Positions 4,447 to 59,434 are shown, numbered from the stretch's first letter. The stretch: DNA of 64,000 nucleotides from Thainema sp. (GCA_052168235.1 JBQLZK010000004.1:64001-128000), one strand, 5' to 3'. Numbers and translations: made by a program. The notes: generated by a model not told the origin, from the letters alone.

Positions 4447-4551
4447 TCATATAAGTCTGGTTGGAAACCTGTAATTTATTTCTGTGAAGCGTTTGCTCCG
4501 CAAACGCTTCACAGAAATAAACTGGGTTCTTAATACCCAGACTTGATATTA
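4447..4551 (-). repeat. Family A hairpin element (MITE-like)
   Basis: 22-bp perfect arms 4475-4496/4500-4521, loop TCC; ends AATATCAAGTCTG...CAACCAGACTTATAT on minus strand. Confidence 0.85.
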
Positions 4552-4634
4552 ACGCTACGCGCATATGACCATATCAGATGTTGTCAAAGAGCAGATTAAC
4601 AAATGCTGGATTTAGCACATCTATCCCAGGAATG

Positions 4635-4841
4635 TTAAAAGACCTCATCTTCGATACCGACCCACCATTCACCCAAATTCATCACGTCCTGGTGGATATC
4701 GGCTAAGGCTTTAGCATATTCGTCGGCAGTGAGTTCTGCACGCTGTTCCTGTAATTTTTGGATTCGCAGTTGGGCCAGTAACCAAGGCTTGCTAATGCCA
4801 TCGGTGGTCTGAATGTAGTGGCTGAGTTCTTCGCTATTCAT
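4635..4841 (-). CDS. Small hypothetical protein, 68 aa
   Basis: ATG-started ORF with protein-like composition ending LGEWWVGIEDEVF. Confidence 0.75.
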   Translation of the reverse strand: MNSEELSHYIQTTDGISKPWLLAQLRIQKLQEQRAELTADEYAKALADIHQDVMNLGEWWVGIEDEVF

Positions 4842-4931
4842 TTAGATAAGGTAAAAAGAAAAGGTAAACGATTGTTTGGATAAGTATAGAAGGATGTTTG
4901 TGATGCGATCGCGCTCAAAATAGCTCAACCC

Positions 4932-5501
4932 TTAGTATTCCGCTGCCAGAATTTGAGCGGCAGTTAGCGCAAAGTTCGAAAATAACAGCGATTCTACAAC
5001 TTGATCACCCTGGTAAATTTTCTCCTCGTAAAGGCCATCAATCCAGTTCAAACCCGTTACTTTTTGAGCCTTTGGATCGACAATCCAGTATTCGCTAATA
5101 TGACGACCCGCATATTCTGTCCGCTTGTAGCGATAGTCACGGTTTTCCTGTTTAGGGCTAACGACTTCGACAACAAGCGCTGGGGGCGGCATATCGTGAG
5201 TGATTAGCCGTTGCGTTGCATCTTTTAATGCCTCTGCTGCTTCGTCAGAAAGCACGGTCAAATCAGGTTGCCGAGCTGTCGCTAGCTTACCGCTAACCGC
5301 GATTTGAATTTTCATGCTCAAATGCGTGTAGGAAACGCCAAGTTGAAGGAAATAGGCATACAGGAAAGAGGCGATGCGATCGTGAAGGTCGCTCTCGGGC
5401 GGCATGGCAATTAGCTCTCCCTCAACTAGTTCGTAGCGGGTATCAGTACCATCGTCAAAGTTAAGATAATCTTGCAGGGTCATGGGTGTTGCGATCGCCA
5501 C
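4932..5501 (-). CDS. Uma2 family (PD-(D/E)XK-like) endonuclease
   Basis: YELVEGELIAMPPES, RQPDL, LVVEVVSP, DYRYKRTEY, EYWIVDP. Confidence 0.92.
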   Translation of the reverse strand: MAIATPMTLQDYLNFDDGTDTRYELVEGELIAMPPESDLHDRIASFLYAYFLQLGVSYTHLSMKIQIAVSGKLATARQPDLTVLSDEAAEALKDATQRLITHDMPPPALVVEVVSPKQENRDYRYKRTEYAGRHISEYWIVDPKAQKVTGLNWIDGLYEEKIYQGDQVVESLLFSNFALTAAQILAAEY

Positions 5502-5573
5502 GGCGCACCTTACCTACTCAACAGATCTATTCTAGCTGTGCAATATATTGCACTATGTCTATCCTGCAAGGGA

Positions 5574-5672
5574 TATCCAATCCGTATATAAAAACCCAAT
5601 GATTTTTTGTGGACGGCTGGCTTGGCCAGCCGTCCACAAAAAATCATTGGGTTTTAACCAAACTTTGTATGA
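5574..5672 (+). repeat. Family A hairpin element
   Basis: 31-bp perfect arms 5591-5621/5625-5655, loop TTG; ends TATCCAATCCG...AACCAAACTTTGTA. Confidence 0.85.
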
Positions 5673-5701
5673 ATTTTGAGCGTTTGTTGAATTGATCAGT
5701 C

Positions 5702-5745
5702 AAAAAAGGAGCCTCTTGCCAAATTCGGCAAGAGGCTCCTTTTTT
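5702..5745. terminator. Intrinsic terminator downstream of htpG
   Basis: AAAAAAGGAGCCTCTTGCC-AAATTC-GGCAAGAGGCTCCTTTTTT just after the htpG stop. Confidence 0.8.
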
Positions 5746-5762
5746 CAGATCTTTTCTGTGGA

Positions 5763-7763
5763 TTACACAGATTTCTCAGTAAGTGCCGTCAGAACCTTGT
5801 TAGAACGCTCAACAAAGGACTTCATGCCGTCGGCGTCAAAGCCTTTCTGAGCCATCAGGGCCAAATCGTAAACGTGCTGGCAGATCAGGTTAGCCATTTC
5901 GCTGGATGGTGAGTCACCGCTGCCCGTGATGATACTGCCCTGGCTGATCTTGAGCAGATTTTGGATCAGCGGGTGCGAGGTATTCACCATCAGGATGTGC
6001 TCGTCAGGGAACTCAGCCGCTTCCTGGCTGTAGAGAGCAGTCATATCCCGTAGACGGCGCAGGGCTTCCGGCAACAGCACCATTGCAGGTGGTGCGCTGG
6101 CTCCATCGTCGGCTTTGAGCGCCTGAGTCTTGACGTTGAGCTTAGGCCGATTGAGCGCCTTTTCAAATAATTCCTTGATCTGGTCGCCCCGCGTCTTGTT
6201 GGTTGACGGATCGACGATTTCGTCGGTTTGATCCTGATCGATTAGCGTATCGTCAATTTCGGCATCGACGCGGGAGAATCGAACATCCGAATACTCGCGC
6301 TCCAAGAACGAGATGAAGTGAGTATCGATGAAGGAATCGAGATAGAGAACCTCTAAACCTTGGCTCTTGTGCAGCTCGACGTAGGTTGACTGAGCAACGG
6401 GGTCGTTGCAGTAGAACACTCGGTTTTCGTGCCGTTCCTTATTGCGCTCCAGGTACTCTTGCAGAGTGGTATAGGAAAATCCCTTGCTGTCGGTAACAGC
6501 ATTAGCGGCATTACTGCCAGAAGACGCATCTTCCCAAACGTCGCCTTCGGCGGTTTGCACTTCCACCTTGGGCTGATCGTCGGCTTTAGTACCCAGATCG
6601 GCAGTGGTGCGATAGATCAGGATATCCTCGACCTGCTTCTTGAACTTGTCGTCGTTGATCGAGCCAAACTTGACGAAAGTACCCAAGTCTTGCCAGCAGC
6701 GGATGTACTGTGCGAGATCTTCTTTGTACAGCTCCTTGAGCCGATCGCCCACTTTCTTAGCAATGTAGTCAGCAATGCGGCGGACAGTGCGGTCTGCTTG
6801 CAGGAAGCTACGGGAAACGTTGAGCGGAATGTCGGAGCTATCGATGACGCCGCGTAGGGGCAGCAGGAAGCGGGGCACCACTTCTTCGCAGTTGTCGCTG
6901 ACGAAGACCTGGTTGCAGAACAGCTTGATCTGACTTTGGGTAATATCGACATCCGGCTTCAGCTTGGGGAAGTAGAGAATGCCATTGACGACGAAGGGAT
7001 AGTCGGTGTTGAGGTGAACCCAGAGCAGCGGATCTTCCTGGAAGGGATAGAGATAGCGGTAGAACTCTAGATAGTCTTCATCGGTGAGTTCGCTGGGGGA
7101 TTTGCGCCAGATTGCTTCGTGCTTGTTGACGACTTCGCCATCGAGCTTGATGGGCACGGGCATGAAGTCGCAGTAGGTAGTAATGAGCTGGCGAATACGA
7201 GCAGGCTCCAGATACTCTGCCTCGTCATCCATCAGCGTCAGAGTAATAGACGTGCCGCGCGAAGTGCGATCGCTATCGGTCAAGGTAAATTCTGTCGAAC
7301 CATCGCATGACCAGTGAACGGCTTGAGCATCTTTGCGGTAAGACCGGGTATCGATTTCGACTTTGCTGGCCACCATGAAGGAGGAGTAGAAGCCGAGACC
7401 GAAGTGACCAATGATGTTCTCGTTGCTGTTGTCCTTGTACTTTTGAATAAATTCTTCAGCGCTGGAGAAGGCAACTTGATTGATGTAGCGCTTGACTTCA
7501 TCCGCCGTCATGCCAATACCGTTGTCCGTGACGGTCAGGGTTTTAGCGTCTTTATCGATGGTAATTTCAATTTCCGGATCGTCGAGTTCGCCTTCAAATT
7601 CATCGCTGTAGGACACCATTTTCAGCTTGCTGATGGCGTCAACGGCGTTGGAGATGAGTTCCCGCAGAAAAATTTCGTGGTCGGAATAGAGCCACTTTTT
7701 AATAATCGGGAAAATATTCTCAGTATGGATACTGATGTTGCCCTGCTCTAGAACTGTGGTCAT
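5763..7763 (-). CDS. htpG: Chaperone HtpG (Hsp90)
   Basis: EIFLRELISNAVDA, DNGIGMT, IGHFGLGFYS, DIPLNVSR. Confidence 0.97.
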   Translation of the reverse strand: MTTVLEQGNISIHTENIFPIIKKWLYSDHEIFLRELISNAVDAISKLKMVSYSDEFEGELDDPEIEITIDKDAKTLTVTDNGIGMTADEVKRYINQVAFSSAEEFIQKYKDNSNENIIGHFGLGFYSSFMVASKVEIDTRSYRKDAQAVHWSCDGSTEFTLTDSDRTSRGTSITLTLMDDEAEYLEPARIRQLITTYCDFMPVPIKLDGEVVNKHEAIWRKSPSELTDEDYLEFYRYLYPFQEDPLLWVHLNTDYPFVVNGILYFPKLKPDVDITQSQIKLFCNQVFVSDNCEEVVPRFLLPLRGVIDSSDIPLNVSRSFLQADRTVRRIADYIAKKVGDRLKELYKEDLAQYIRCWQDLGTFVKFGSINDDKFKKQVEDILIYRTTADLGTKADDQPKVEVQTAEGDVWEDASSGSNAANAVTDSKGFSYTTLQEYLERNKERHENRVFYCNDPVAQSTYVELHKSQGLEVLYLDSFIDTHFISFLEREYSDVRFSRVDAEIDDTLIDQDQTDEIVDPSTNKTRGDQIKELFEKALNRPKLNVKTQALKADDGASAPPAMVLLPEALRRLRDMTALYSQEAAEFPDEHILMVNTSHPLIQNLLKISQGSIITGSGDSPSSEMANLICQHVYDLALMAQKGFDADGMKSFVERSNKVLTALTEKSV

Positions 7764-7939
7764 AGGAGTCAACGATTTTTAATTACAAAATCTAGTACAA
7801 AACCCAAACGAAACTCGGTTAGTTTGGCTGAATGAATTCGCGATTCTCTTGCAATTTTCTTCTCTTGCAATTTTCTAAAGAGATGGCAAAAGCGATCGCA
7901 CATCCAAAAATCTACGAATGTCTCAATCCCGATAGCAAT

Positions 7940-7972
7940 GGTGCGTTACGGCTACGCCTAACACACCCTACA
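7940..7972 (-). repeat. GTAG-type REP-like palindrome
   Basis: TGTAGGGTGTGTTAGGCGTAGCCGTAACGCACC; homologous to 20921-20952. Confidence 0.7.
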
Positions 7973-8093
7973 GGATCTCCGGCTGTGATTCACAATCATG
8001 GTCATCGTATGCTGATTTGTTTTGCATCGTAGATCGGAATACTCCGTTTAATAGAGTTCGGATCTCCCTACTCATTCCGTTTCTCGTTGGTGG

Positions 8094-8196
8094 ACTTACA
8101 TCTTGCACTAAAACCCGAAGAGGGTATTTCGCTGCCGCATCGCGGCGGCGAAATAACCCTTCTGGGTTCTTGGTTTACAAGGTGCAAGATGTAAGT
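8094..8196. repeat. Family B hairpin element (MITE-like)
   Basis: 15-bp perfect TIR ACTTACATCTTGCAC/GTGCAAGATGTAAGT; inner hairpin ...GCCGC-ATC-GCGGC... Confidence 0.85.
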
Positions 8197-8255
8197 AGAG
8201 CTTTGGGTAGTGTGGGTATCGGAGCAAGGGAGCAGCGGAGCCTTGAGGCGCAAAT

Positions 8256-9571: not shown

Positions 9572-9668
9572 TGATGAAAGTTCGGTCAGAAACTCATAGT
9601 TTGTTATTGTGAGATGCTTGCTGAGCAAGCATCTCACAATAATCTGAGTCTTAGTAACTGCTGGGCAG
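9572..9668 (-). repeat. Family A hairpin element (diverged ends)
   Basis: 18-bp perfect arms 9604-9621/9625-9642, loop TGA; arm nearly identical to the 25935 copy. Confidence 0.75.
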
Positions 9669-11213: not shown

Positions 11214-11275
11214 CCCAGAACTTGTTATGCTGAAAGGCAAAATAACCCTTCTGGGTTTTGGTGCAAGATGTGAGT
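11214..11275. repeat. Family B element remnant (right half)
   Basis: GGCAAAATAACCCTTCTGGGTTTTGGTGCAAGATGTGAG matches the right halves of the 8094 and 39401 copies. Confidence 0.75.
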
Positions 11276-11301: not shown

Positions 11302-12636
11302 ATGGCCGCTGACAACGAACTCTTTCAAGAAGCGCAGACCCAATGGAATCTGGAGAGGCTATACGCGGATCTTGCGATCGCAAAACAGGAAACGGCTCCC
11401 CACAAGCAGCGGTCGCTCACGCAGATGGAGCAGGAGCTACTGCGGGGCTTACTGTGTCGCTATAGTCCAGCGGAAATTGCGGCGCAGCGGTTTACCGCGC
11501 CCAAAACGGTGGAAGTCAGCCTCAGCAACACGATTTATCGCTATGTGGAGACGTTGACGCGACGGGACGTGAACACGCTGGAGAGCTGGCGCGATGTGGC
11601 GGATTGGCTGGCAGCAGCGGGTTACGAATCGGCACGGCTGGAAATTAACTGGTCGCAGGTGCCGGATGTGCCTGTGTTCTACGGGCGGGAAGTGGAGTTG
11701 TCCCAGTTGCAAACCTGGACAACGGAACCGGATGCGGTCTGTCGAATGGTGATGGTGCTGGGGCCAGGGGGCATTGGCAAAACCAGTCTGCTGGTGAAGC
11801 TGGTGGAGCAAATCCAGAGTCAGTTTGATTGTTTGATTTGGCAATCCCTGCGCCACGCGCCGCCGCTGGAGACGATGCTACACCAGTGGCTGACCCAGCT
11901 TCCGGGTGCAGTCGATGGCTCTGAGGGCGATCTGCACGCACAGCTCTGCTACCTGACGGAGTATCTACGCAGTCACCGCTGTCTGATTGTGCTGGATAAC
12001 CTAGACACAATTTTGCGCGAAGGGGACTTTGCGGGACATTACCGAGAAGGCTACGAGAACTACGGCGATTTGCTGCGACGGCTGGGTGAGGAGCAGCACC
12101 AGAGCTGTGTCCTGATCACTAGCCGGGAATCAACGAAAGAAATCGTCATGCTGGATGGGCCGACTCGGCCAGTGCGATCGCTGGATCTGCCTGGGCTGGG
12201 AGATGCCGCAGAGGGCATTCTGCAAGAGGCGAATCTGTCGGACGAAAAGCAGTGGGGGCAACTGATTCGCATTTATCGCGGCAATCCACTGGTACTGAAA
12301 ATTGTCGCTTCCAATATTCGTGAATTGTTTAGCGGCAGCGTCAGCGACTTTTTGAAACAGCGGATCACGCTAATCACCAGCGATGTCAGCTTTCTGATTG
12401 AGCAGCAGTTCAGACGGCTCTCGGCAGCGGAACAGGAATTGCTCTATGCGCTGGCGAAAATTCAGGAACCCGTCAATGTGGGACGATTGCAGGCGGAACT
12501 GGCGCCGAATATTTTGCAGCCGCTGGGGTCGCTGGTGCGGCGATCGCTGGTGGAAAAAAGTGCGGCAGGGTTCACGCTGCGCCCGGTGGTGATGGAATAC
12601 GTGTGCGATCGCATGTCTCGTGAGGCATCATCATGA
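11302..12636 (+). CDS. NB-ARC (STAND) NTPase with N-terminal HTH-like domain, no C-terminal repeats
   Basis: Walker A GPGGIGKT, Walker B LIVLDNLD, LITSRE, GNPL motif. Confidence 0.85.
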   Translation: MAADNELFQEAQTQWNLERLYADLAIAKQETAPHKQRSLTQMEQELLRGLLCRYSPAEIAAQRFTAPKTVEVSLSNTIYRYVETLTRRDVNTLESWRDVADWLAAAGYESARLEINWSQVPDVPVFYGREVELSQLQTWTTEPDAVCRMVMVLGPGGIGKTSLLVKLVEQIQSQFDCLIWQSLRHAPPLETMLHQWLTQLPGAVDGSEGDLHAQLCYLTEYLRSHRCLIVLDNLDTILREGDFAGHYREGYENYGDLLRRLGEEQHQSCVLITSRESTKEIVMLDGPTRPVRSLDLPGLGDAAEGILQEANLSDEKQWGQLIRIYRGNPLVLKIVASNIRELFSGSVSDFLKQRITLITSDVSFLIEQQFRRLSAAEQELLYALAKIQEPVNVGRLQAELAPNILQPLGSLVRRSLVEKSAAGFTLRPVVMEYVCDRMSREASS

Positions 12637-13718
12637 GCTTCTGCATCAATCCCAAATGCCCAGATCGGCAGCAGCCCGATGAGTTAACGCAGTGTGCGGC
12701 CTGTGGAACGGAGTTAGTGATCTGCGATCGCTATCGTCTGATTCGTCCGCTGCGGGAACTGGACGATTGGCTCCCGACTGACATTTTTGAGGTAGCAGAT
12801 GAGATAGCAAATGGAGATACGCTGAAGGTGCTGAAGGTACTGAAACAGCCCAAGCTGCAATTCCTGTTCGAGCGCGAGGCGCAGACCCTACAGCGGCTCG
12901 ATCATCCCGGTATTCCTCAGGTTGAGCTGGATGGCTATTTCACAGTTACGACATCAGAGGGGCAATTGCTGACCTGCTTAGTGATGGAAAAGATTGAGGG
13001 ACTGACGCTGGAGCAGTGGCTAGCCAAGCATGGTTCGGTTGACCCAAAGCAAGCGCAGGTATGGTTGCGGCAGGCGTGCGAAATTTTAGGACTGGTGCAT
13101 CAGACGGAACTGTTTCACCGAGATATTAAGCTCTCTAACCTGATGCTGCGCCCCAATGGACAGTTGGCTCTGATTGACTTTGGCACCGTCCGCCAGATGT
13201 CGAATACTTACCTGGCCAAAATCGGCGGCCAGCGCGATGTCACGAGCATCGTGTCACCTGGCTATACGCCCCTGGAGCAAATCAACGGAAAAGCGGTGCC
13301 CCAGTCGGACTTTTATGCGCTGGGCCGTTCACTGGTGCATCTGCTGACGGGGCAGCATCCAGTGGATTTGGAAACCGATGACGCAACAGGAGCATTAATC
13401 TGGCGTGATTCTGCTCCTCAGGTTGATCGCTGGTTTGCCGAGCTGGTTGATGATTTGATGGCTCCTTTTCCGGGACAGCGCCCGCTCAATGCTCAGGAAA
13501 TTTTGCGACGGCTGGATACGAAACCCGTAAAGCCTCGGCAAAATGCTGAGCAGCTTTGGATTTGGCTGCTCATCAGTCTCAATATTGCCCTGTTGCTAGT
13601 TCATGGCGTGCTGGGTTGGCGTTGGGTGCAGCAGCGAGAGGCGCGATCGCACCTGCCAACCGAACAAAGTCACGTCGCAAATTTCCAGGTTTGTAGGGGC
13701 GATGCATGGCGCACATAA
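12633..13718 (+). CDS. Ser/Thr protein kinase with 4-Cys prefix and C-terminal TM
   Basis: CINPKC..CAACG, HRDIKLSN, DFG, GYTPLEQ; ATGA overlap with the upstream gene. Confidence 0.9.
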   Translation: MSFCINPKCPDRQQPDELTQCAACGTELVICDRYRLIRPLRELDDWLPTDIFEVADEIANGDTLKVLKVLKQPKLQFLFEREAQTLQRLDHPGIPQVELDGYFTVTTSEGQLLTCLVMEKIEGLTLEQWLAKHGSVDPKQAQVWLRQACEILGLVHQTELFHRDIKLSNLMLRPNGQLALIDFGTVRQMSNTYLAKIGGQRDVTSIVSPGYTPLEQINGKAVPQSDFYALGRSLVHLLTGQHPVDLETDDATGALIWRDSAPQVDRWFAELVDDLMAPFPGQRPLNAQEILRRLDTKPVKPRQNAEQLWIWLLISLNIALLLVHGVLGWRWVQQREARSHLPTEQSHVANFQVCRGDAWRT

Positions 13719-13765
13719 TCTCTATGACCGAAGAATACGGTACTGCCACCATGCATCGCCCCTAC
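13693..13765. repeat. GTAG-type REP doublet
   Basis: 17-bp perfect IR GTAGGGGCGATGCATGG/CCATGCATCGCCCCTAC. Confidence 0.8.
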
Positions 13766-15120: not shown

Positions 15121-15212
15121 CTAGTACTCTGTAGATTAAGTTTTGATGGTTGATGTGCCGCGCGGCACATCAACCATCAAAACTCATTAAAACAAAGTTG
15201 ACAGACTACTAG
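15121..15212 (+). repeat. Family C hairpin element
   Basis: CTAGTACTCTGT...ACAGACTACTAG ends; 46-bp spacer-less perfect palindrome 15139-15184. Confidence 0.85.
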
Positions 15213-15592: not shown

Positions 15593-15691
15593 TTAGTGCT
15601 ATGTCAAATCAGTTTTTAGGGTTGATATGCCGCGCAGTGCGCGGCATATCAACCCTAAAAACCCGCTAAAACAATGTTGACCAACCACTAG
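15593..15691 (+). repeat. Family C hairpin element
   Basis: TTAGTGCTATGTCAA...TTGACCAACCACTAG ends; 24-bp perfect arms 15612-15635/15639-15662, loop AGT. Confidence 0.85.
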
Positions 15692-21956: not shown

Positions 21957-22023
21957 ATTGTCCTCGACAGTTAATGATTGTTTTGATTATCTGTGAAGAG
22001 CTTGCTATGCGAGCCTTTCACAG

Positions 22024-23040
22024 ATGATCGTTCCGGAAATAATGTCTGATATTGCTCCAACTCACTTAGAACCGATTCTGACCATCAGCGGCACAACCGT
22101 TTTGCCCGGAAAAAAGCAGCGGTTGGAAATTCCGATTGCTCGCCTGCCGACCCAAACCATGCTGTCTCTACCCGTGACGGTGGTTACAGGGCTACGACCT
22201 GGCCCACGACTGTGGCTGAGTGCCGCCATTCACGGTGACGAACTGAACGGAGTAGATATTATCCGGCGGGTGCTGGGCAAAATCGCTCCTGGCTACCTAA
22301 ACGGCACAGTTATTGCCGCGCCCATCGTCAACGTATTTGGCTTTATCGAACAGTCACGCTATTTGCCTGACCGCCGCGATTTAAACCGTTCCTTTCCCGG
22401 CTCGCCACGAGGATCACTCGCGGCCCGACTGGCCCATCTGTTTATGAAAGAAGTGGTCAACCAGTGTACCCACGGCATTGACCTACATACGGCAGCTTAT
22501 CACCGCACCAATTTGCCGCAAATTCGGGCCGATCTGCGCGATGAGCAGACCCGAAAATGCGCGATCGCATTTGGCGCTCCTTTGATGATGCAGTCTGCCG
22601 TACGCGACGGGTCGCTGCGTCAAGCTGCTGCCCAGAAAAGGATTCCAGTATTACTCTACGAAGCGGGAGAAGCACTGCGATTCGACGACGATGCGATCGC
22701 AGTTGGCGTCACAGGCATTATGCGCGTGATGAAAGCGCTGAACATGTACGACTCTGAGGTAGAACTGAGCACTAATCCCCCCGTAGCAGTGGACAAAAGC
22801 CAGTGGGTACGCGCTTCCCACAGCGGCATTCTGCACCTGACGGTGAATCTGGGCGACTGGGTGGGCAAACGACAGCAAATTGCGCTGATCAGCGATGCCT
22901 TTGGCGACAAAACCTTTGAGGTACTGGCCCCCACCGATGGTATTGTGATCGGCTGCACCCGCAACCCACTGGTGAACCAGGGTGACGGCATCGTCAATCT
23001 TGCGATCGCGCATCGCAGCGACCTCAATGCCAATCTGTAG
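22024..23040 (+). CDS. Succinylglutamate desuccinylase/aspartoacylase family (M14-like)
   Basis: AAIHGDELNG, DLNRSFPG, IDLHT, LYEAGE. Confidence 0.9.
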   Translation: MIVPEIMSDIAPTHLEPILTISGTTVLPGKKQRLEIPIARLPTQTMLSLPVTVVTGLRPGPRLWLSAAIHGDELNGVDIIRRVLGKIAPGYLNGTVIAAPIVNVFGFIEQSRYLPDRRDLNRSFPGSPRGSLAARLAHLFMKEVVNQCTHGIDLHTAAYHRTNLPQIRADLRDEQTRKCAIAFGAPLMMQSAVRDGSLRQAAAQKRIPVLLYEAGEALRFDDDAIAVGVTGIMRVMKALNMYDSEVELSTNPPVAVDKSQWVRASHSGILHLTVNLGDWVGKRQQIALISDAFGDKTFEVLAPTDGIVIGCTRNPLVNQGDGIVNLAIAHRSDLNANL

Positions 23041-23602: not shown

Positions 23603-23632
23603 TGTGGGGGCGAATGGCCATTTGCCCCTACA
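23603..23632. repeat. GTAG-type REP palindrome
   Basis: TGTGGGGGCGAATGGCCATTTGCCCCTACA. Confidence 0.7.
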
Positions 23633-25512: not shown

Positions 25513-25733
25513 CGTCTAACAAACCTCAAAGAGGAAATTTTGCCGCCACAAGTACTTGTTTAGCGCAATACTCTGATAGATCCCCCTAAATCCCCCTTAA
25601 AAAGGGGAACTTTGAGCTAGTGGTGGTATAGCCCCTTTTTCAAGGGGGCGGCGACAGCTGGGGATCGTACAACTACGCTAAACACATACCGCCGCAATGC
25701 GGCGGCAAAATCCCCTCTTTGGGTTTTCGGACG
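25513..25733. mobile_element. Nested repeat complex: hairpin element interrupted by a MITE-like insert containing a third repeat
   Basis: Insert TIR GTACTTGTTTAGCG/CGCTAAACACATAC (12/14) flanked by CGCCACAA/CGCCGCAA; internal GATCCCCCTAAATCCCCCTTAAAAAGGGG...CCCCTTTTTCAAGGGGG...GGGGATC. Confidence 0.75.
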
Positions 25734-25805
25734 AGTTTGAAGTTTGTCTATACCAGCCTGCTGAGGTTGCAAAGCTTTCTTGAAGAATCCGTGATTTTCC
25801 GGACG

Positions 25806-25934: not shown

Positions 25935-26041
25935 TAATATCAAGTCCGCGTATAAGAACCCAATTTATTTTTTGTGAAATGCTTGCTAAGCAAGCATTTC
26001 ACAAAAAATAAACCGTGGGTTTTCAACCGGATTTTGTATAA
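25935..26041 (+). repeat. Family A hairpin element
   Basis: 23-bp perfect arms 25964-25986/25990-26012, loop TAA; TAA direct repeat at both ends. Confidence 0.88.
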
Positions 26042-26137: not shown

Positions 26138-26244
26138 TAATACGAAGTCCGCTCATAAAAACCAGTTTTTATTTTCATGAAAGTTAGGCGTAGCCTAACT
26201 TTCATGAAAATAGTTCGGGTTCTTTATAGTCGGATTCGGCATAA
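26138..26244 (-). repeat. Family A hairpin element
   Basis: 20-bp perfect arms 26170-26189/26193-26212, loop GTA; C-TAA[element]TAA-G. Confidence 0.85.
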
Positions 26245-30390: not shown

Positions 30391-30424
30391 ACAAAGAGCC
30401 GAGATACCTCGGCTCTTTGTTTTT
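30391..30424 (+). terminator. Intrinsic terminator
   Basis: ACAAAGAGCCGAG-ATAC-CTCGGCTCTTTGT followed by a T run. Confidence 0.75.
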
Positions 30425-33500: not shown

Positions 33501-33761
33501 CAAAGCGCCAACGAATTGCGCGATCGCATCACCGATTTTGAAGTCGGAGTCGATCAGCTAGTGTTCACGGATCTGTTAGACAGCATCGGCTACACGGGCA
33601 GCGATCCACTGGCAGATGGTGTGATTACGCTCCGGCAGCTAGGAGCCGCAGGCACCCGCATTGAAGGCTTCGGCGGCCCCGGTCGATCGAAGTTCATTAC
33701 CCTCGAAGATGTGACGGTGGCTGAACTCAACAGTGCTGTTGAGACATCGTTTGTGTTCTAA
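30525..33761 (+). CDS. Extracellular ExeM/NucH-like endonuclease (OB + EEP domains, RTX tail)
   Basis: IYEIQG, GFYLQD, YNVLN, GLQEIQD, LGDLN, LDHILV, SDHDP; GAGG RBS before ATG 30525. Confidence 0.88.
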   Translation: MSDLMITGIIDGPLTGGIPKAIEFYVLNDIPDLSIYGFGSANNGGGSDGQEYTFSGSAAAGEYIYIATETTGFTNFFGFAPTDTSFAASINGDDAIELFMNGIVVDVFGDINLSGTGQPWDYMDGWAYRVPESLPDRTFSSADWTFSSPNALDGSTTNDDAATPFPLGSYTADGSSSLVINEMVVSTAGTDREFVELLGLPSASLDGVFLLEVESGGEIDTVLDFSGQSLGTNGYFLATSPEAEAVLGVTGDISIANNTFTNASQTYLLVRNFTGASGDDLDLDDDGTIDVLPWDELLDDVAFIDDDNPIIYSSNVVGPDGSFLAPGGFRDPDGTGAFVQHSFSDPSTYTPTAGDSDGGNGGGDGDLVAIYEIQGAAHTSPLEGQTVITTGIVTAMDSNGFYLQDPTGDGNIATSDAIFVFTGGSPGVSIGDELQVEGTVSEFTPGGVSTRNLSTTQISGSPTITTLSTGNALPEAVIIGANGRIPPSESIDDDDFFSFDPAEDGIDFFESLEAMRVTAQNLVAVAGTNGFGEIFAIATDTNATGISDRGTLNISPDDFNPERIQINEDSDLFDFEFPTVDVGAELGDVTGVVGYSFGNFEIYPTEDFTATIQDSTLQAESSSITGSINDLTIASYNVLNLDPNDADGDTDIADGRFAAIAAQIVNSLNSPDIIGLQEIQDNNGSVNDGTTSASETLQLLVDAIAAAGGPQYEFIDNTFIIDGQSGGQPGGNIRTAFLYNPDRVNLVEGSVQPIGSQAPGATFAGARLPLVATLEFNGQEITVVDNHFSSKGGSAPILGTEQPFEDLQEDPDVNGSLNERREQAQAVNDFVDGIFANDADANVVVLGDLNEFEFVSPLDILAGTVESLNAGQAIQSTGEAAVLTNLINNIDPDERYSFIFQGNSQQLDHILVSDSLLNEAEIDIVHVNTEFAETDSRASDHDPVLASLFFFNEITGTNRRDILVGTDGRDRILGLGGNDCLTGGAGADLFVYQSANELRDRITDFEVGVDQLVFTDLLDSIGYTGSDPLADGVITLRQLGAAGTRIEGFGGPGRSKFITLEDVTVAELNSAVETSFVF

Positions 33762-33863
33762 TACGAAGCCTAGTTGAAAACCCCATTATGTATTTTTGCC
33801 CAATGCTTACGACGCAAGCATTGGGCAAAAATACATTGGGCGGACATACATGGACTTGATTAA
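33759..33863 (-). repeat. Family A hairpin element
   Basis: 23-bp arms (1 mismatch) 33788-33810/33814-33836, loop GAC; C-TAA[element]TAA-G, first TAA is the nuclease stop codon. Confidence 0.82.
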
Positions 33864-36910: not shown

Positions 36911-37011
36911 AAAGTGAGATTCGGACATAACGGGGGTTTACCGCAATTCGTTAGGATAGAAGCAAATATTAAGAAGCGTATCGGCAATTCTTAGACCCGC
37001 ATCCCAACCTT

Positions 37012-37989
37012 ATGACCCTAGAGATTCCTCGATCAACAGCAGTCCCCCCACCTGCCACTACTCCCATCGCGTTAGAAGCATCCGGTTTGAAAAAAGGCTA
37101 TGGCAACGGCAAGCAGCGGGTAGAGGCGGTGCGGCATGTTTCCCTGGATTTGCATTTGGGTGAGGTTCTGGCCTTCTTGGGGCCAAACGGCGCGGGTAAA
37201 ACCACCTCAATCAAGATGATTGCGGGGCTGATCCGTCCCGATCAGGGCTGGGTGAAAATTGCAGGCCAAGATCCTCATCACGACCCAAAAGCGCTGCGGC
37301 TGGTCGGAGCTGTTTTGGAAGGCAACCGCAATCTCTACTGGCGACTAACGCCGCTGGAAAATTTAGCGTATTTCGGTGTTCTGCGTGGGTTGACCCGCCG
37401 CCAAGCCCATCGCCACGGGCTAGAGCTGCTGGAGCAGTTCGACCTGATGGATAAGCGTAAAACGCCCGTGAAAAACCTGTCGCGGGGGATGCAGCAGAAA
37501 CTTGCGATCGCAGTTGCTCTGGTGCATAAACCTCGGCTGCTGCTGCTGGATGAGCCGACGCTGGGGCTGGATGTGGAAGCTAGTGAACATGTGAAGCAAC
37601 TGGTACGAGCAGTTGCCAAAGCAGGCTGTGCCATCTTGCTCACTACCCATCAGCTAGATGTGGCGGAAGAACTGTCGGATCGGGTAGCCGTTATCCGTCA
37701 AGGCGAAATTATTGCTCAGCGCCCTACCCGTGACTTGATTCGCGAGTTTTCTGGTTCCTCCTATCGGATTGAGCTAGAGCACGATCTGGATGCCGCTCGC
37801 CAGCAGGCGATTATGGCACTCGGTGCTGTGGTGGATGCTCGGCACGTTACCTACACGGGCGAACCCGCTGGTTTATATCAAATTCTGCGTATCCTGGAGC
37901 CGCTGCCGTTTGTTCAGGTGAAGAAAGATGCCGCCGATCTAACGGCGGTATTTCTCAAGCTGGTACGCAGTGATGTCTCGGCAATGTAA
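37012..37989 (+). CDS. ABC exporter ATP-binding protein
   Basis: GPNGAGKT, LSRGMQQK, LLLDEP. Confidence 0.93.
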   Translation: MTLEIPRSTAVPPPATTPIALEASGLKKGYGNGKQRVEAVRHVSLDLHLGEVLAFLGPNGAGKTTSIKMIAGLIRPDQGWVKIAGQDPHHDPKALRLVGAVLEGNRNLYWRLTPLENLAYFGVLRGLTRRQAHRHGLELLEQFDLMDKRKTPVKNLSRGMQQKLAIAVALVHKPRLLLLDEPTLGLDVEASEHVKQLVRAVAKAGCAILLTTHQLDVAEELSDRVAVIRQGEIIAQRPTRDLIREFSGSSYRIELEHDLDAARQQAIMALGAVVDARHVTYTGEPAGLYQILRILEPLPFVQVKKDAADLTAVFLKLVRSDVSAM

Positions 37990-38092
37990 TGTCCAGTCTG
38001 TGTATTAAAACCGATCTATTTTCTACGAAACTCTCGCTTAGCGAGAGTTTCGTAGAAAATAGATCACGGGTTTTCATCCAGAATTCGTGTAG
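37987..38092 (+). repeat. Family A hairpin element
   Basis: 25-bp perfect arms 38013-38037/38041-38065, loop TTA; begins at the TAA stop of the ATPase gene. Confidence 0.85.
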
Positions 38093-38918: not shown

Positions 38919-38956
38919 AACGTTTAAACGTTGGAACGTTCGAACGTTCCAACGTT
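38919..38956. repeat. AACGTTnn octamer tandem x5 (palindromic)
   Basis: AACGTT separated by TA, GG, CG, CC; 38927-38956 is a perfect 30-bp palindrome. Confidence 0.85.
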
Positions 38957-39400: not shown

Positions 39401-39496
39401 ATATCTTGCACCATTCACAATAGAACCGGAAGAGGTGATTTTGCCGCCGCATCGCGGCGGCAAAATCACCCTTTTGGGTTTTGATGCAAGATGTGG
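39401..39496. repeat. Family B hairpin element
   Basis: ATATCTTGCACC...GATGCAAGATGT ends; 17-bp perfect arms 39434-39450/39454-39470, loop ATC. Confidence 0.83.
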
Positions 39497-44935: not shown

Positions 44936-44972
44936 ACGCTAAAAAGGCCAGCATTGCTGGCCTTTTTAGCGT
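44936..44972. terminator. Bidirectional hairpin / triloop-type palindrome after aroF
   Basis: ACGCTAAAAAGGCCAGC-ATT-GCTGGCCTTTTTAGCGT, 17-bp perfect arms. Confidence 0.7.
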
Positions 44973-46737: not shown

Positions 46738-46827
46738 TAGACTTTATTGGAAATAAAGTTTTTGGGGTTGGAAATCGTTTTGTAGCACGGCAGAGCCGTG
46801 CTACAAAACGATTTCCGATAAGGTCTA
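46738..46827. repeat. Family D hairpin element inside a REP-like palindrome
   Basis: TIR TAGACTTTATTGGAAAT/ATTTCCGATAAGGTCTA; 22-bp perfect arms 46770-46791/46795-46816, loop AGA. Confidence 0.82.
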
Positions 46828-55233: not shown

Positions 55234-55328
55234 TACAGCCATCTTAAGTTGATTATGTAACAGGCCGCCCCGCTGGGGCAGCCTGTTACATAATCAACTC
55301 AGCTCACTAGCAATTCAGTAGAGCTATA
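55234..55328. repeat. Family E hairpin element
   Basis: TACAGC...GCTATA ends; 25-bp arms (1 mismatch) 55247-55271/55275-55299, loop GCT. Confidence 0.78.
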
Positions 55329-55355
55329 CCAAGGAACAGTTGATTTTTTTGAGGC

Positions 55356-55452
55356 ATACCGAATTAGCTTAGAAAACCCCAGAATAATTTTTTGCGAAAT
55401 TGGGCGTTACACATTTCGCAAAAAATTATTCTGGGGTTTTCGACCAAATCTC
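55356..55452 (+). repeat. Family A hairpin element (decayed apex)
   Basis: 29-bp perfect arms 55372-55400/55413-55441; ATACCGAAT...GGGTTTTCGACCAAAT ends. Confidence 0.8.
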
Positions 55453-55504
55453 TTGTTGTAGGTTAAACAAGAGCAAAATAGAAAGTTTGTATTAGCTCCC
55501 AAAG

Positions 55505-55876
55505 CTAGGAGTCGATGCCGACATAAACTTGAGATTGGTTCAATTTGGCATACTGCCTCCACAATTGAGCTAATTCTTCCGCCTTGTCTCTCCAGTTAGG
55601 CTGGATTTGATACATGCGGCGGGGACGCCCACGACCTTCAACTTTTTTCCAGTACCCTATGACTGCTGATTGTTCTTCCAGAAACCTTAAAGCGCTATAA
55701 AGAACGGTGTCAGATAAGCGATAAGATGAGTAGTCATGCTCCAACATCTGAATCAATTCTGTTCCGTAAGAGTCTCGGTGCAGAAGAACATCAAGAATGT
55801 AGCATACGGCAAGTTCTTTATTGAGATGAACCGGGGGGGGATTCTGGAAAAAACGATAGATATCCTCAAATTTCAT
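55505..55876 (-). CDS. pex: PadR-family circadian period extender Pex
   Basis: FF.NPPP..LNKELAVCYIL, SYGTELI, LSDTVLY.AL.FL, GRGRPRRMY. Confidence 0.85.
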   Translation of the reverse strand: MKFEDIYRFFQNPPPVHLNKELAVCYILDVLLHRDSYGTELIQMLEHDYSSYRLSDTVLYSALRFLEEQSAVIGYWKKVEGRGRPRRMYQIQPNWRDKAEELAQLWRQYAKLNQSQVYVGIDS

Positions 55877-56037
55877 ACAAATTATCCAAAATCAGAACGG
55901 ATTAGCCGATAAGTGATGAGACTGCGACCGAACAGCTTAGCTTCGAATAACCAGTAAAAACCAGTAAAGCTTGTTGTTCAAAACGAGGAGTAATTTAGCT
56001 TTAACGTATGACTAACTTACTATCGTTCTTATCCATT

Positions 56038-56523
56038 CTAGACGCTGAAGCGTGGAGTGGCATGCCAAATTTCTCGGATAATTTTCCCACCTGCATCAAT
56101 ATGAGCGGAGTAAGAGACAATGACAACTTCTTGATGGCCATTCGTTTGATCAGCAACTAAAACAACATCTGCTTTAACCAAACGATCGCTATTTTTACCC
56201 TGAGACAAGATTTGGTAGTTTTGAATGCGATATCGGTGCAAAAACTTCGCCCAAGCCTTTGGAATTTCTTTACCTTGGTATCGTTTCTGATTAAGCCCTT
56301 CCTGCCATAGGATCACGGCATCCTTATGATACCGATTCAGGGCTTGACTGGTGTCTTGCGTGGCTATGGCCTGCCAGTGCTGTTGTGCAACGGTAAGCGG
56401 ATCGGCCACTACCATCCGCTGATAGAACATGAGGCTGCCGACCAGTGCGATCGCACATAGACCAGACATCACCTGTCGCCCCACCAAAGAAGGAAATGAA
56501 CCCGGTTTCACTGAGTTTTGCAT
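56038..56523 (-). CDS. Exported NTF2/SnoaL-like protein
   Basis: Signal-like N-terminus, HWQAIA...YHKDAV..W...YQG..I..AW. Confidence 0.6.
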   Translation of the reverse strand: MQNSVKPGSFPSLVGRQVMSGLCAIALVGSLMFYQRMVVADPLTVAQQHWQAIATQDTSQALNRYHKDAVILWQEGLNQKRYQGKEIPKAWAKFLHRYRIQNYQILSQGKNSDRLVKADVVLVADQTNGHQEVVIVSYSAHIDAGGKIIREIWHATPRFSV

Positions 56524-57194
56524 CGGTAACCTCTACGATCCAGCTCTCGAAATACAGCAGGCTCAGGAACGAATCAAAACATTTCTATATGAGCTTAGAT
56601 GTTTGCTATCTCCTTACGGCTTAGCGCAATTTCCATCGGCAATTATTGAGCGCAGTTACTAGATCGTTCGTGCCTTAGACTACTACTACTCAGGACTATC
56701 AGGACTAGCAACATCAGGGTAACAACAGCTTCAAAATATGTCACAGCTCTTATGTAATAGCGTTACAAATCGATGGATAGATTGCTGTAGATACTTGTGA
56801 ACTAATTGACGTAAATCGACAAAGCTTACAGCATTGATACAAGATATTTCATCATCCAATCGATCGAATAACAATTGGATTTGTTCCTCAAATAGGAATA
56901 AATTTAGCGAAAGTTTAAGCAAAAAACTCGGTGACTGCGATTTTAGCTGCTGGACTTAAAAATCCAGGTCTTATCTTAAAAGCCATGATTCGTTACCTTA
57001 AAGCAGCATGTGACAACTCTTCAGTTGTCTACTGGCGATGGCAATTTCTATCAAAAGGGGGTAAAGCCTGGTAGAACGTCTACGCTCTGTGGGGTGATTG
57101 GGAATCGGCAAAAATTTAGACGAATCGCAGATGAACGGTCTGCTCAGAGCTTAGGATGAAGGATAGAGAATCGTGATTAATAAGGAGAACTGCT

Positions 57195-57797
57195 GTGCGT
57201 GAGATATTAATCAGCTTCGGTGTGTTCGCCGTGTGCTGCTTAGTGTTAGTCATTGGCCAAATTACGACAACGGGACAGGATAGCGCGATCGCAGAGGAGC
57301 TAAACAGTAATATGCCCACTGCAACCCAGCTTGATAACAGTTCTGACCTGACCCGTCCCAGTTTTTTTGTGGCCGAGGGTTCCGCTGCTGATTTAGACCT
57401 TTCTTCTGAAACTGATATGACTGCTGAAGAGACAAACTCTGCAACTGAAGGCGCTGATGTTGTAACCACAGATTCTGGGTTACAGTACATTGATGTCGTT
57501 GAGGGCGATGGTGCCCAACCTCAATCTGGACAAACGGTAGTGGTTCACTACACAGGAATGCTGGAAGACGGTACAAAATTTGACAGCTCCCGCGATCGCA
57601 ACCAACCGTTTTCGTTTCCGTTAGGTGCAGGCCGAGTCATTAAAGGTTGGGATGAGGGGATCGCGACGATGAAGGTTGGTGGCCAGCGGCGGCTGATCAT
57701 TCCGCCAGATTTAGGCTACGGCAGTCGCGGCGCTGGCGGCGTGATCCCGCCTAATGCAACGCTAATCTTTGATGTTGAACTTCTACGTATTTCTTAA
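57195..57797 (+). CDS. FKBP-type peptidyl-prolyl isomerase
   Basis: [36 protein letters not shown]. Confidence 0.95.
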
Positions 57798-57861
57798 AGA
57801 GTTCAGTACCCAGCAGGACTGGCAACGTTAGCCCTGCTTGATCTTTACGTTAATAATCCCC

Positions 57862-57907
57862 AAAAAGTTAGCTTGCCGCTGTGTGCAGCGGCAAGCTAAC
57901 TTTTTTT
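57862..57907. terminator. Bidirectional terminator-like hairpin
   Basis: 20-bp perfect arms AAAAAGTTAGCTTGCCGCTG-TGTG-CAGCGGCAAGCTAACTTTTT between convergent genes. Confidence 0.75.
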
Positions 57908-57928
57908 CAACCAATGGGCGGTTGCGCA

Positions 57929-58483
57929 TTAACTGCGCCGCTCAATTTCGGCTTTGATGGCCAGCATGTTTTCTTGCAAACTGTCGGCAAAAATCTTCTG
58001 AAACATGCCGTCGAACAGCCCGGCTTCGGCATCCGCTTCTACGACTTGAGTAATCAATGCCTGCTCGGCTGTTTCAGTGGCAACAGCATCAACTTGCCAG
58101 TAGCCGCTCATTTTTTTCAAATCGCCATCGATTAAGCGAAAATCGATCCGGCGCTCATCTGGCTTAGCTAGATTTTGAGTACGAATGGTGGAGTCTACAT
58201 TCATCATCAGGATCTGACGACGATCAACCTGCTCCACAATTTTCTGATTTCCCCGATCATCTAGAATGCGGCTGGAAACAACTGTAGGCAAAAAGTTAGA
58301 CAAACTTTCAAAGTCATTGAGCACAACCCATGCCGTATCTGCGCTCGCATCGGCGAGAACTTGGGCCTGGTAATGATTGTGTTGCTGTGCGATCGCAACT
58401 TTTCCGTGCTGTAGCTGCTCGGGTTGAAGAACATTGCTCTGTTCAGCTAAGGCCTGTGCTGTTGGATCAGCTGTAGCAGTCAT
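57929..58483 (-). CDS. SRPBCC / polyketide cyclase-dehydrase family protein
   Basis: AW.VLNDFE.L..FLP.V..SRIL, FRLIDGDLK...GYW. Confidence 0.85.
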   Translation of the reverse strand: MTATADPTAQALAEQSNVLQPEQLQHGKVAIAQQHNHYQAQVLADASADTAWVVLNDFESLSNFLPTVVSSRILDDRGNQKIVEQVDRRQILMMNVDSTIRTQNLAKPDERRIDFRLIDGDLKKMSGYWQVDAVATETAEQALITQVVEADAEAGLFDGMFQKIFADSLQENMLAIKAEIERRS

Positions 58484-58635
58484 AAAGTAGTTGGGCGTAA
58501 CGACGATTTTAGATTAACAAATCTCAACAAAGCCGCCTTCTATCAAGCGCAGGACTTGGGAGGCAGAATTTGGAAACGCTTGAACGGTTTCAGAATTTCT
58601 CAACGTCCGTGTCCTAACTTAGCTGGCTACAGATC

Positions 58636-58728
58636 TATAGTGATTCCAGTTAAGAGTGAGAAAACGAGAGAGGAGAGTGCCTCATCCTGAGGCACTCTCC
58701 TCTCTCGCTCTTACCTAGAACTGCTCTA
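58636..58728. repeat. Family E hairpin element
   Basis: TATAGTGATTCCAGTTAAGAG...CTCTTACCTAGAACTGCTCTA ends; 20-bp perfect arms 58665-58684/58688-58707, loop TCC. Confidence 0.8.
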
Positions 58729-58941
58729 AATGTTGCTGGGATATTCCGGAGATCAGCACCGATCATTTGAAAGCAGTTAATAGCGGCTGATATTGCGACT
58801 GTATTGGCCGCAGTTGTAGTCTTTATGGCTACGATGAGCCAGATTGCTTATGTAATCAATGTTTAACATTGTTGACATTGCTCGGTGCGGTAAGCAATTT
58901 AGCCAACGCTATACTTTGTGCCTCCGGGCTAGGATTTTCAT

Positions 58942-59379
58942 ATGATTCCTCTAGAGGATTCTGAGATCAAGCAGTTGGCTCGATCTCTGCGACGCATCCA
59001 TCAACCGACTCGTTCAAGTGCATCGACGGGAACAACCAAAATTTGGTATCAGGGAAACGAGCCTTATTTTGATTTGACGGTTGAAGTAAAAACCGATGGT
59101 GAGATCGCAGCGCTACTACTCACGCTCAAGGGGTACTTTCTCGCTTGGAATTGCCAAAACCGCAAATTTAGCACCGGATGCACCAGTGAGACTGACATTC
59201 CCGGTGTGTCGTACTATGCAGCCAGCACGGTCATGAATCAGTTTAACGAGGTCAATGTAACGGTTTTGCAGCAGTTACAGTCATTGCTGCTAGCGATCCC
59301 GCCAGCCGACCCGATTATTCAGCAGGTACAGCAGTTGGTGATTTCATCCAATTCAGACACTGAATCAAAATCAAAGTAG
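58942..59379 (+). CDS. Hypothetical protein
   Basis: 145 aa, WYQGNEPYFDL and SYYAAS motifs. Confidence 0.7.
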   Translation: MIPLEDSEIKQLARSLRRIHQPTRSSASTGTTKIWYQGNEPYFDLTVEVKTDGEIAALLLTLKGYFLAWNCQNRKFSTGCTSETDIPGVSYYAASTVMNQFNEVNVTVLQQLQSLLLAIPPADPIIQQVQQLVISSNSDTESKSK

Positions 59380-59434
59380 GGAAGGGTGCCGCGCTGCGGC
59401 ACCCTTCCCTACTCTTTGGTTGACAGACCATTTT
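59355..59434 (+). repeat. Family C-like hairpin element overlapping a gene end
   Basis: 18-bp perfect arms 59375-59392/59396-59413, loop GCT; right end TTGACAGACCA. Confidence 0.65.

Follow-up and report, generated by a model that had tools for sequence, protein, structure and literature searches.

A 64,000-nt stretch of the genome of the cyanobacterium Thainema sp. (GCA_052168235.1 JBQLZK010000004.1:64001-128000; hereafter the window, with positions counted from its first base) carries about 20 short palindromic elements. We found that they belong to a set of 12 families of MITEs (miniature inverted-repeat transposable elements), and in kind these families are ordinary. Unusual about them are three properties: their tips converge on a mini-hairpin design under different transposases, orthologous loci often bear footprints of template switching, and a second element, X, homes to the tips. 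We consider it probable, taking the explanation as a whole, that the families are moved by DDE transposases, that their palindromes are kept by template switching and that the shared tip is a convergent optimum. The perfect arms in particular are most likely the product of template switching during replication, judging from the footprints at orthologous loci, and no structure-reading protein is needed to explain them.

Families of palindromic elements

The whole assembly of the genome that holds the window (G000; 7.54 Mb in 205 contigs) was scanned for perfect inverted repeats with arms of at least 14 nt and a spacer of at most 12 nt. The scan returned 1077 repeats, 909 of them distinct sequences. 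An earlier sequence-only reading of the window had proposed a comparison with shuffled DNA: a first-order shuffle of 1.26 Mb contained none, against 222 in the real sequence. Minimal spacers showed a strong bias to short odd lengths, with 389 repeats at 3 nt and 215 at 1 nt, against 121 at 0 nt, 34 at 4 nt and 23 at 2 nt; spacers of 5-12 nt came to 295 together. The 604 hairpins with a 1- or 3-nt centre were mostly closed as GC-NNN-GC (449), and less often as CA-NNN-TG (47) or CC-NNN-GG (44).

Clustering of the ±90 nt around the hairpins gave 14 groups of 12-155 members. Two groups that begin with GTAGGG and resemble repetitive extragenic palindromes (REP) were set apart, and the 12 families kept were described by profile hidden Markov models (HMMs) of 80-110 bp. 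These families have 951 non-overlapping copies, of which 722 cover at least 85% of the model, and they occupy 84,246 bp or 1.1% of the genome. Although stop-to-stop open reading frames (ORFs) of at least 150 codons cover 80.4% of the genome, only 66 of the 951 element centres lie inside one (93% intergenic). The elements are small, non-coding and multi-copy, and the consensus ends of the families are terminal inverted repeats.

Arm pairing and orthologous copies

Copies were collected by profile regardless of pairing, and full-length copies of eight families were aligned to the family HMM. In fam0 (183 copies) 89.2% of 4128 stem cells of the alignment were paired, with 493 both-sided changes. 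The corresponding values were 95.3% and 32 changes in fam1 (93 copies), 95.3% and 34 in fam2 (60), 92.4% and 76 in fam7 (42), 87.2% and 65 in fam8 (32), 84.8% and 55 in fam10 (47), 82.6% and 80 in fam13 (41) and 75.1% and 199 in fam5 (98). Sliding the partner column by 1-2 positions left 16-55% of the cells paired across the eight families; for fam0 this control gave 34-43% pairing and 71-82 both-sided changes. At the third, fifth and seventh pair from the loop, both-sided changes were found in 57, 70 and 87 of ~177 fam0 copies. Shape is thus conserved while sequence is free, as the sequence-only reading had maintained.

A sister genome of the same genus (G001; 1.96 Mb sampled, 84-92% nucleotide identity over aligned stretches of the window) provided seven shared elements with a hairpin in at least one of the two species, all of them fam0. 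At 37989..38090 (minus strand) the inner stem differs at four pairs, all compensated, and the loop is TTA in both species. One compensated pair was found at each of four further loci: 25937..26039 (minus strand; T:A against C:G, loop TAA in G000 and GGA in G001), 26140..26242 (plus strand; loop GTA and TAC, an exact inversion), C1:105313 (G:C against T:A, flanks ~96% identical, loop TAA and TTA) and C6:161189 (a transversion pair, loop GGA in both). The element at C20:60730 has two compensated transversion pairs and one uncompensated C-to-T change, which leaves G.T at the closing pair (loop AGA in both), and the element at C13:80996 has no inner-stem difference (loop GCA and TGC). Altogether, 10 of the 11 inner-stem differences over the seven pairs are compensated on both arms. 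Interior differences were counted separately from stem-base positions; the 11 'uncompensated' pairs of an automated tally are stem-base positions that end a shorter stem by construction, together with positions behind a 2-nt indel. Three of the seven loops are exact reverse complements between the species, and two of these are accompanied by a compensated change.

Such a combination of arm homogenisation and spacer inversion is the footprint of template switching. In yeast, switching between the arms of inverted repeats (IRs) yields 'homogenization of IR arms and IR spacer inversion' (PMC8604942). According to the passages on stem evolution in Monttinen and Loytynoja 2022 (PMC8794818), template switching creates and maintains perfect stems, a compensated change together with loop inversion is its strongest support (6 of 9931 ribosomal RNA (rRNA) cases), and loop inversion implies a between-strand switch. 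We infer template switching in the Thainema elements because they show arm homogenisation and loop inversion often and in place (10 compensated changes against one uncompensated, and three exact inversions, in seven pairs).

In the mechanism that we propose, a host process, rather than a reader protein, would keep the palindrome perfect. During replication the nascent strand would switch template within or across the hairpin and copy one arm onto the other, and a mutation would be erased or turned into a compensated pair. A between-strand switch would additionally invert the three-base loop. With one arm copied onto the other, arm sequences would drift freely and the shape would stay fixed. 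DDE transposases of different superfamilies would move the elements in trans; only the terminal repeats of 12-17 nt would derive from parent insertion sequences (IS), as shown for two families, and the remainder would be long palindrome.

Both loop orientations also occur within families, at ~1:1. In fam1, where an asymmetric 21-nt insertion on one side gives the orientation, we counted 25 TCC, 15 GGA, 13 GAA and 10 TTC loops, and in fam2, oriented by its asymmetric right arm, 17 TCC and 12 GGA. Orientation by HMM strand was near even in fam0 (22:17), fam8 (7:5) and fam10 (13:10).

These in-place changes bear directly on the idea that the sequence-only reading had put forward, in which the hairpin is a cis-acting structure read by a protein, be it a transposase, a host nicking or priming enzyme, or a binder of single-stranded DNA (ssDNA) or cruciforms. 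Only intact GC-closed triloop copies would then multiply, and selection at transposition would keep the shape. We think this unlikely. The compensated changes and loop flips at orthologous loci arose without transposition, and therefore something besides selection at the jump must act. A strand-specific reader is also hard to square with a loop that functions both ways round, and DDE transposases of the IS630 and IS5 kinds act on double-stranded ends. No candidate gene for a reader was found; in the window itself none of the 44 ORFs scanned is a transposase, as the sequence-only reading had noted. What speaks for a reader comes from the tips and from element X, described below.

The three-base tip

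Of the 604 odd-centre hairpins, 205 have a GNA loop, which reads TNC on the opposite strand (34%, against 12.5% expected), with GGA/TCC (148) and GAA/TTC (47) the most frequent. Such loops form the top loop class in fam0, 1, 2, 8, 10 and 12, and they were found in 200 of 459 family hairpins (by subtraction) against 5 of 145 non-family hairpins, an enrichment that counts in favour of a protein reader. In its account of loop sequences, the Hirao review of 2026 (PMC13037366) states that only GNA loops among all 64 GCNNNGC fragments form a mini-hairpin, with a melting temperature (Tm) of 70-76 C. Polymerases pause at mini-hairpins, which serve as marks of phage origins, of a priming signal and of the N4 phage promoter (PMC13037366; PMC3201870). 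As sequences, the commonest tips of our families, GC-GGA-GC and GC-GAA-GC, match this mini-hairpin DNA motif. Mini-hairpin tips are protein-recognised signals in the N4 promoter and the ssiA priming site (PMC13037366), which again favours a reader, as does the presence of the same architecture under two transposase superfamilies. Under template switching, the explanation we prefer, the shared tip would be a convergent optimum, a loop of 3 nt being the smallest possible. A C-G-closed and often GNA tip may nucleate single-strand folding at the replication fork and so favour a template switch.

At a length of 8-10 nt each family has tips of its own: among 280 distinct 10-nt tips, just 12 were found in two or more groups, for the most part as isolated strays. 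The tips are therefore not a shared exchangeable module, and their specificity speaks against a nested mobile tip. A shared mobile tip of the small dispersed repeat (SDR) type, a 21-27-nt unit moving alone, was rejected as a candidate for this reason. The sequence-only reading had pictured one structure-recognised module carried by different elements; the family-specific tips contradict it, as does homology to IS that ends after 12-17 nt. In a related scenario the inner hairpin is a tiny independent mobile element, like the SDRs of Nostoc or mitochondrial GC clusters, nested into different MITEs. We consider this very improbable. One fam12 copy does lack the inner ~24 nt of its palindrome, and tips of 6 nt recur (CCGCGC in fam7 and fam8, CGCGGC in fam1 and fam4), as nesting might produce. 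Against nesting, beyond the specificity of the longer tips, no solo tip copies were seen outside the families, and between tip and terminal repeat the arms change gradually, without a boundary or duplication inside them.

Several points weigh against the combination of template switching and a convergent tip. The bias towards loops of 1 or 3 nt does set the families apart from terminator-like hairpins (470 of 726 family hairpins, against 62 of 170 T-tailed and 72 of 181 untailed non-family ones). However, GC/GC closure, the other hallmark in the sequence-only reading, is not specific to the elements and is about equally common in non-family hairpins, where it closes 37 of 62 T-tailed and 47 of 72 untailed odd-centre ones. 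GNA is a tendency and not a rule, since four families (fam5, 9, 11 and 13) do without it as their top loop class. The orthologous sample comprises only seven pairs from one sister genome. Strong selection on pairing, at the level of DNA or RNA, with ordinary compensatory mutation would also yield covariation, an alternative opposed only by the transversion pairs and the loop flips. Not all families show an even orientation of the loop: fam5 (ATC 29, GAT 11), fam9 (9:2) and fam13 (6:1) are skewed, so flipping is not free or not fast there. Template switching is judged here from its footprint. Loop orientation rests on two draft assemblies; mis-orientation by the assembler would make some flips artefacts, which we judge unlikely for arms of 20-31 nt, and orientation should be secured by any read that spans more than one arm and the loop. 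Template switching also leaves unexplained why 7 of the 12 families share a run of T in the 5' arm and one of A in the 3' arm.

This polarity around a GC tip is the consensus of fam0, 1, 4, 5, 7, 8 and 13 and fits no reading considered here. Public sequencing runs consisted of short contigs of relatives that break at repeats. In one RNA-library contig, positions 26150-26223 of the window are replaced by a diverged stretch of equal length, which we did not count as evidence.

Element X in the hairpin tips

X is a non-coding repeat of 130-170 bp that enters hairpin tips of other repeat families almost exclusively. Its copy in the window, at 25552..25690 (plus strand; ends GTACTTGTTTAGCG...CGCTAAACACATAC), lies inside the tip of a fam5 hairpin with an 8-bp duplication, and the hairpin is intact at the orthologous G001 site. 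The right half of the split hairpin is at 25689..25741 (plus strand) and the left half ends at ~25551. After our own de-duplication of the strand-wise list, 22 unique two-ended copies were retained in the genome, including those at C3:136987, C13:47319 and C35:40546. Duplications of 7-8 bp were found in 12 of the 22; the duplicated segment spans the loop, and its midpoint is 2-4 nt off that of the hairpin. Removing X rebuilds the pairing of the target at 10 or more of 14 positions in 18 copies, and at 13 or more in 8. The targets include fam0, fam1/4, fam5, fam10, a REP-like family and orphan hairpins, and their sequences share palindromic form only. Searches of the genome did not find a transposase of X. 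A recurrent ~943-bp spacing of loose X-end matches was a false lead; the stretch examined, on contig C82, is single-copy and has a 309-aa ORF.

Since X inserts specifically into the tips of many families, at least one transposition system recognises tips. This suggests that the hairpins, or their palindromic tips, are recognised in living cells, and it supports a protein reader insofar as tip recognition exists in this lineage. The structure-recognition idea of the sequence-only reading therefore survives for the tips, through the system that moves X, and is dispensable for the perfect arms, for which the template switching that compensated changes and loop inversion point to would suffice.

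A bolder account, which we hold only tentatively, is that, far from being a passive by-product, the GC-closed 3-nt tip (typically GNA) acts as a DNA signal, making the element a self-healing selfish structure. The tip would snap ssDNA into a hairpin at the fork and stall the polymerase, and the resulting switch would repair the palindrome and flip the tip. The folded tip would also be the landing pad for X and possibly the handle by which the MITEs multiply. If this is true, the tip could be a general design rule for hairpin-type mobile DNA across the domains of life. The design would be wider than one lineage because unrelated families in a distant cyanobacterium share it. Of 15 perfect hairpins in 200 kb from a cyanobacterium of a different family (G018), 13 are centred on 1 or 3 nt, and in two genera belonging to the family of the window such hairpins are nearly absent (10-15 per Mb).

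The G018 stretch (G018:C1:100001-300000) has its own unrelated element families of ~110 bp (TACAGCAACCCTAAATCAG... and ...GGGACAGTGGGGCGC), with GGA/TCC triloop tips in both orientations.

Parent insertion sequences and mobility

The terminal repeat of fam2, TATAGCG(G/A)TTC, forms both ends of a 1058-bp repeat contig (C177) with two ORFs (176 and 204 aa) and a match to DDE_3, of the IS630 type, at 107 bits; 10 or more contig-end junctions carry this terminal repeat as well. The fam1 end, TAGACTTTATCGGAAAT, equals the first 17 nt of another repeat contig (C179), whose 318-aa ORF matches DDE_Tnp_4 (1.3e-21) and HTH_Tnp_4. In both families likeness to the parent IS does not extend beyond 12-17 nt, and the hairpin is therefore not made of IS sequence. 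The ends are thus unrelated, as the sequence-only reading had described them, one family sharing its ends with an IS630-type element and another with a DDE_Tnp_4/HTH_Tnp_4 element. Matching ends to complete IS succeeded for these two families and not for the other ten: a search of G000 for IS copies flanked by family ends gave no partner for them, and the remaining candidate pairs, 500-4000 bp apart, were not followed beyond this search.

Together with the ends shared with IS, presence or absence between sister species bears out that the elements are non-autonomous and mobile. The G001 sample contains 377 elements, and for 180 of them both flanks mapped to one G000 locus. At these sites G000 is shorter in 90 cases, of similar length but less than 75% identical in 57, and longer in 19; 14 are shared orthologs. 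Half of the mapped G001 insertions are therefore missing from G000, and the elements move. The empty sites expected of mobile elements were clean in three cases, with duplications of TA (fam10, two sites) and TAG/TA (fam7, one site), and in none for other families. Window sites near 30421 and 33800 gave no clean empty site against G001 because the spacers have diverged. Copies of fam1 number 102 in G000 and one among the 377 of the G001 sample. A BLAST search with one fam0 copy, insensitive for a variable palindrome of 103 nt, recovered the family from two genomes, G000 and its genus mate, among 121 sampled from the order, and the families are therefore genus-level by sequence.

At sites mapped between G000 and G001, different families occupied the same spot in 14 of 115 cases, and the same family lay in opposite orientation at five (for example G000 C26:73224). 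These sites suggest insertion hot spots, replacement or inversion of whole elements.

Genomic position and transcription

The intergenic position of the elements would also fit a role as RNA, in which they act as terminators, RNA-stabilising hairpins or processing sites under ordinary selection on RNA structure. We regard this as improbable. In tandem gaps the elements lie a median of 95 nt behind the upstream stop codon, and there is a mild excess between convergent genes (225 elements, 26% of elements against 20% of gaps), with 468 elements in tandem spacers (54% against 58%). Another 168 (20% against 22%) lie between divergent genes, where termination is not needed. Orientation relative to the upstream gene shows a preference in fam1 (16:38), fam5 and fam10 (20:6), as an RNA role would predict, but it is even in fam0 (65:64). 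By its sequence fam10, a textbook A5, GC stem and T5, looks like a two-way terminator, and in fam0 and fam5 GGGTTTT terminates the outer stem on either strand. In contrast, with T-runs in the 5' arm and A-runs in the 3' arm, 7 of the 12 families are built the opposite way to an intrinsic terminator, in which a U/T run on the transcribed strand comes after a GC-rich stem. That form is seen in fam10 and in three non-family hairpins of the window. The free flipping of loops, the difference between sister species in half of the insertions and the lack of any Rfam match within the window at gathering thresholds all speak against selection on an RNA. Effects on transcripts are plausible as side effects of the elements.

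Comparison with known systems

Bacterial MITEs, including the cyanobacterial Nezha and MaeMITE, are described by Delihas 2011 (PMC3184786) as small, non-coding, multi-copy elements with ends shared with IS. The sections on these elements also report duplication of the target, sites filled in one relative and empty in another, hairpins predicted to be very stable and a location between genes, all like those seen here. The difference is that at least 12 families, with at least two transposase superfamilies, converge on one tip design here, and that the hairpin shows concerted evolution of its arms and flip-flop of its loop. Neither the convergent tip design nor concerted arms with loop flip-flop in MITEs was found by a full-text literature search, in the parts of the texts that it returned; the search did not extend to the description of the Nostoc SDRs.

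Hairpins shaped by template switching are alike in arm homogenisation, multi-base compensated changes and inversion of spacer or loop (PMC8794818; PMC8604942). In the portions of these sources that describe them, such hairpins come from rRNA, microRNA and repeats in yeast coding regions and promoters, whereas our loci are selfish DNA. Compensated change together with loop inversion was found in 6 of 9931 cases there (PMC8794818), against two of seven orthologous pairs here. Mini-hairpin DNA, GCGNAGC, has the same 3-nt GNA loop on a C-G closing pair (PMC13037366; PMC3201870). The uses that the review sets out are at phage origins, in priming signals, in the N4 promoter and in synthetic applications, and the tips of transposable-element palindromes are not among them (PMC13037366).

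Other palindromic repeats differ more. REP and REPIN sequences are palindromes of 20-40 nt whose 5' end bears a conserved GTAG or CGTC tag, and they are linked to RAYT (Y1) transposases. They too are abundant intergenic GC-rich palindromes, but our 12 families lack the tag, have DDE-type terminal repeats and TA or TAG duplications, and are 80-110 bp long. Palindromic elements derived from IS200/IS605 have subterminal hairpins, no terminal inverted repeats and no target duplication, whereas terminal repeats and TA/TAG duplications are present here. Tobes and Pareja are said to have shown in 2006 that IS elements, IS1397 and others, target REP hairpins. X is alike in inserting into the tips of pre-existing palindromic repeats; unlike those IS it is non-autonomous, measures 130-170 bp, enters many unrelated hairpins and leaves an 8-bp duplication that spans the loop. 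Elhai et al. reportedly described in 2008 Nostoc SDR1-8, very small hairpin-associated repeats inside larger repeated contexts. The terminal hairpins of parvoviruses undergo flip/flop through hairpin-primed rolling replication of the end of a linear genome. Their asymmetric palindrome centre likewise occurs in both orientations at ~1:1, but the palindromes studied here are internal to a chromosome.

The REP-like families of G000 that were set apart start with GTAGGG (GTAGGGGCGAATGGCC..., 40 identical copies; GTAGGGACACGGC..., 31 copies) and have even or 1-nt centres; examples in the window are at 23603-23632 and 13693-13765. Two Y1_Tnp matches in the genome, C9:148984 and C2:257610, could be the RAYT of these families.

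Compensated stem changes are usually taken as proof of a selected structure, and here they are frequent in selfish DNA and come with inverted loops. In genomes rich in repeats, covariation by itself should therefore not be taken to imply functional RNAs. With hundreds of loci per genome, the elements offer a natural system for measuring template switching. Knowledge of the families, which make up 1.1% of the genome and lie mostly between genes, also aids the annotation of cyanobacterial genomes and strain typing.

Elements and other features of the window

An inverted-repeat search of the window gave 46 inverted-repeat pairs, 18 of them with perfect arms of at least 14 nt. When ±80 nt around each centre were read, all 16 three-base centres of the sequence-only reading were found at their positions, and 13 are closed by GC...GC, the exceptions being 33811 (AC/GC), 55272 (CC/GG) and 58685 (CA/TG). 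At these sites the arms are GC-rich towards the tip and AT-rich towards the base, again as described. The family HMMs gave 20 matches in the window (ten of fam0, five of fam5, two of fam7 and one each of fam1, fam2 and fam11), and 14 of the 16 sites fall within families, leaving out 44936-44972 and 59375-59413. The five end types that the sequence-only reading distinguished are real: A is fam0, B is fam5, C is fam7 and D is fam1, while E splits into fam2 and fam11. Eight window copies were folded as DNA. Each formed one long triloop hairpin of -28.6 to -39.9 kcal/mol (z -7.5 to -12.7), and none of 200 shuffles folded as well.

The fam0 (end type A) element at 4453..4549 (plus strand) has perfect 22-bp arms and a TCC loop closed by GC/GC (nhmmer score 72.9; perfect inverted repeat 4475-4521; fold -32.6 kcal/mol, z -11.7). 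Further fam0 elements lie at 5573..5671 (minus strand; perfect 31-bp arms, loop TTG), 33761..33860 (plus strand; no counterpart at the orthologous G001 site) and 55357..55452 (minus strand; 29-bp arms around a 12-nt centre, the tip having been replaced). Less complete fam0 matches are a partial copy at 9578..9642 (plus strand; model 8-73 of 106, perfect 19-bp hairpin), a hairpin remnant with imperfect arms at 21984..22027 (minus strand; model 34-77) and a copy with a decayed hairpin at 61215..61311 (minus strand).

End type B, CTCACATCTTGCAC, is represented by the fam5 elements at 8096..8194 (plus strand; fold -39.9 kcal/mol, z -12.7) and 39401..39495 (minus strand), both with an ATC loop closed by GC/GC, and by a terminal fragment at 11236..11274 (minus strand; model 1-39 of 101). 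The two fam7 elements (end type C, CTAGT..TGTCAA) are at 15123..15210 (plus strand; 23-bp arms, even centre with spacer 0) and 15595..15689 (plus strand; 25-bp arms, centre AGT closed by GC/GC). The fam1 element (end type D, TAGACTTTATYGGAAAT) at 46739..46827 (plus strand) carries the terminal repeat of the DDE_Tnp_4 IS on contig C179. The fam2 element (end type E, TATAG...) at 58632..58734 (minus strand) has terminal repeats that match the IS630-type element on contig C177. The fam11 element is at 55236..55328 (minus strand; loop GCT closed by CC/GG).

Four further hairpins, given without strand, stand apart. A terminator-like non-family hairpin (A6, stem, T6) at 5702..5745 is directly downstream of an htpG-like gene, and the non-family hairpin at 44936..44972 (A-run, stem, T-run), after a DAHP synthase gene, is probably an ordinary terminator. 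At 57853..57905 a weak fam5 match (22.7 bits; A5, stem, T7) is likelier to be a terminator than a family member, and at 59375..59413 there is an orphan 18-bp hairpin, GC-GCT-GC, in no family.

Products of the window's genes include a phycobilisome protein, PAM68, CCB1 and sucrose-phosphate phosphatase. A 93-bp CT-rich insertion on G001 C85 (CTCACTCCTCACTCC...), absent at window position 36991, forms no hairpin. At 11302-13715, beside repeat-rich spacers, the genes for a STAND/NACHT-type NTPase and a serine/threonine kinase have a few bases in common. Right after an ABC-2 transporter gene, at 38919-38956, there are overlapping AACGTT-based palindromes (AACGTTGGAACGTTCGAACGTTCCAACGTT) that lie outside the families.

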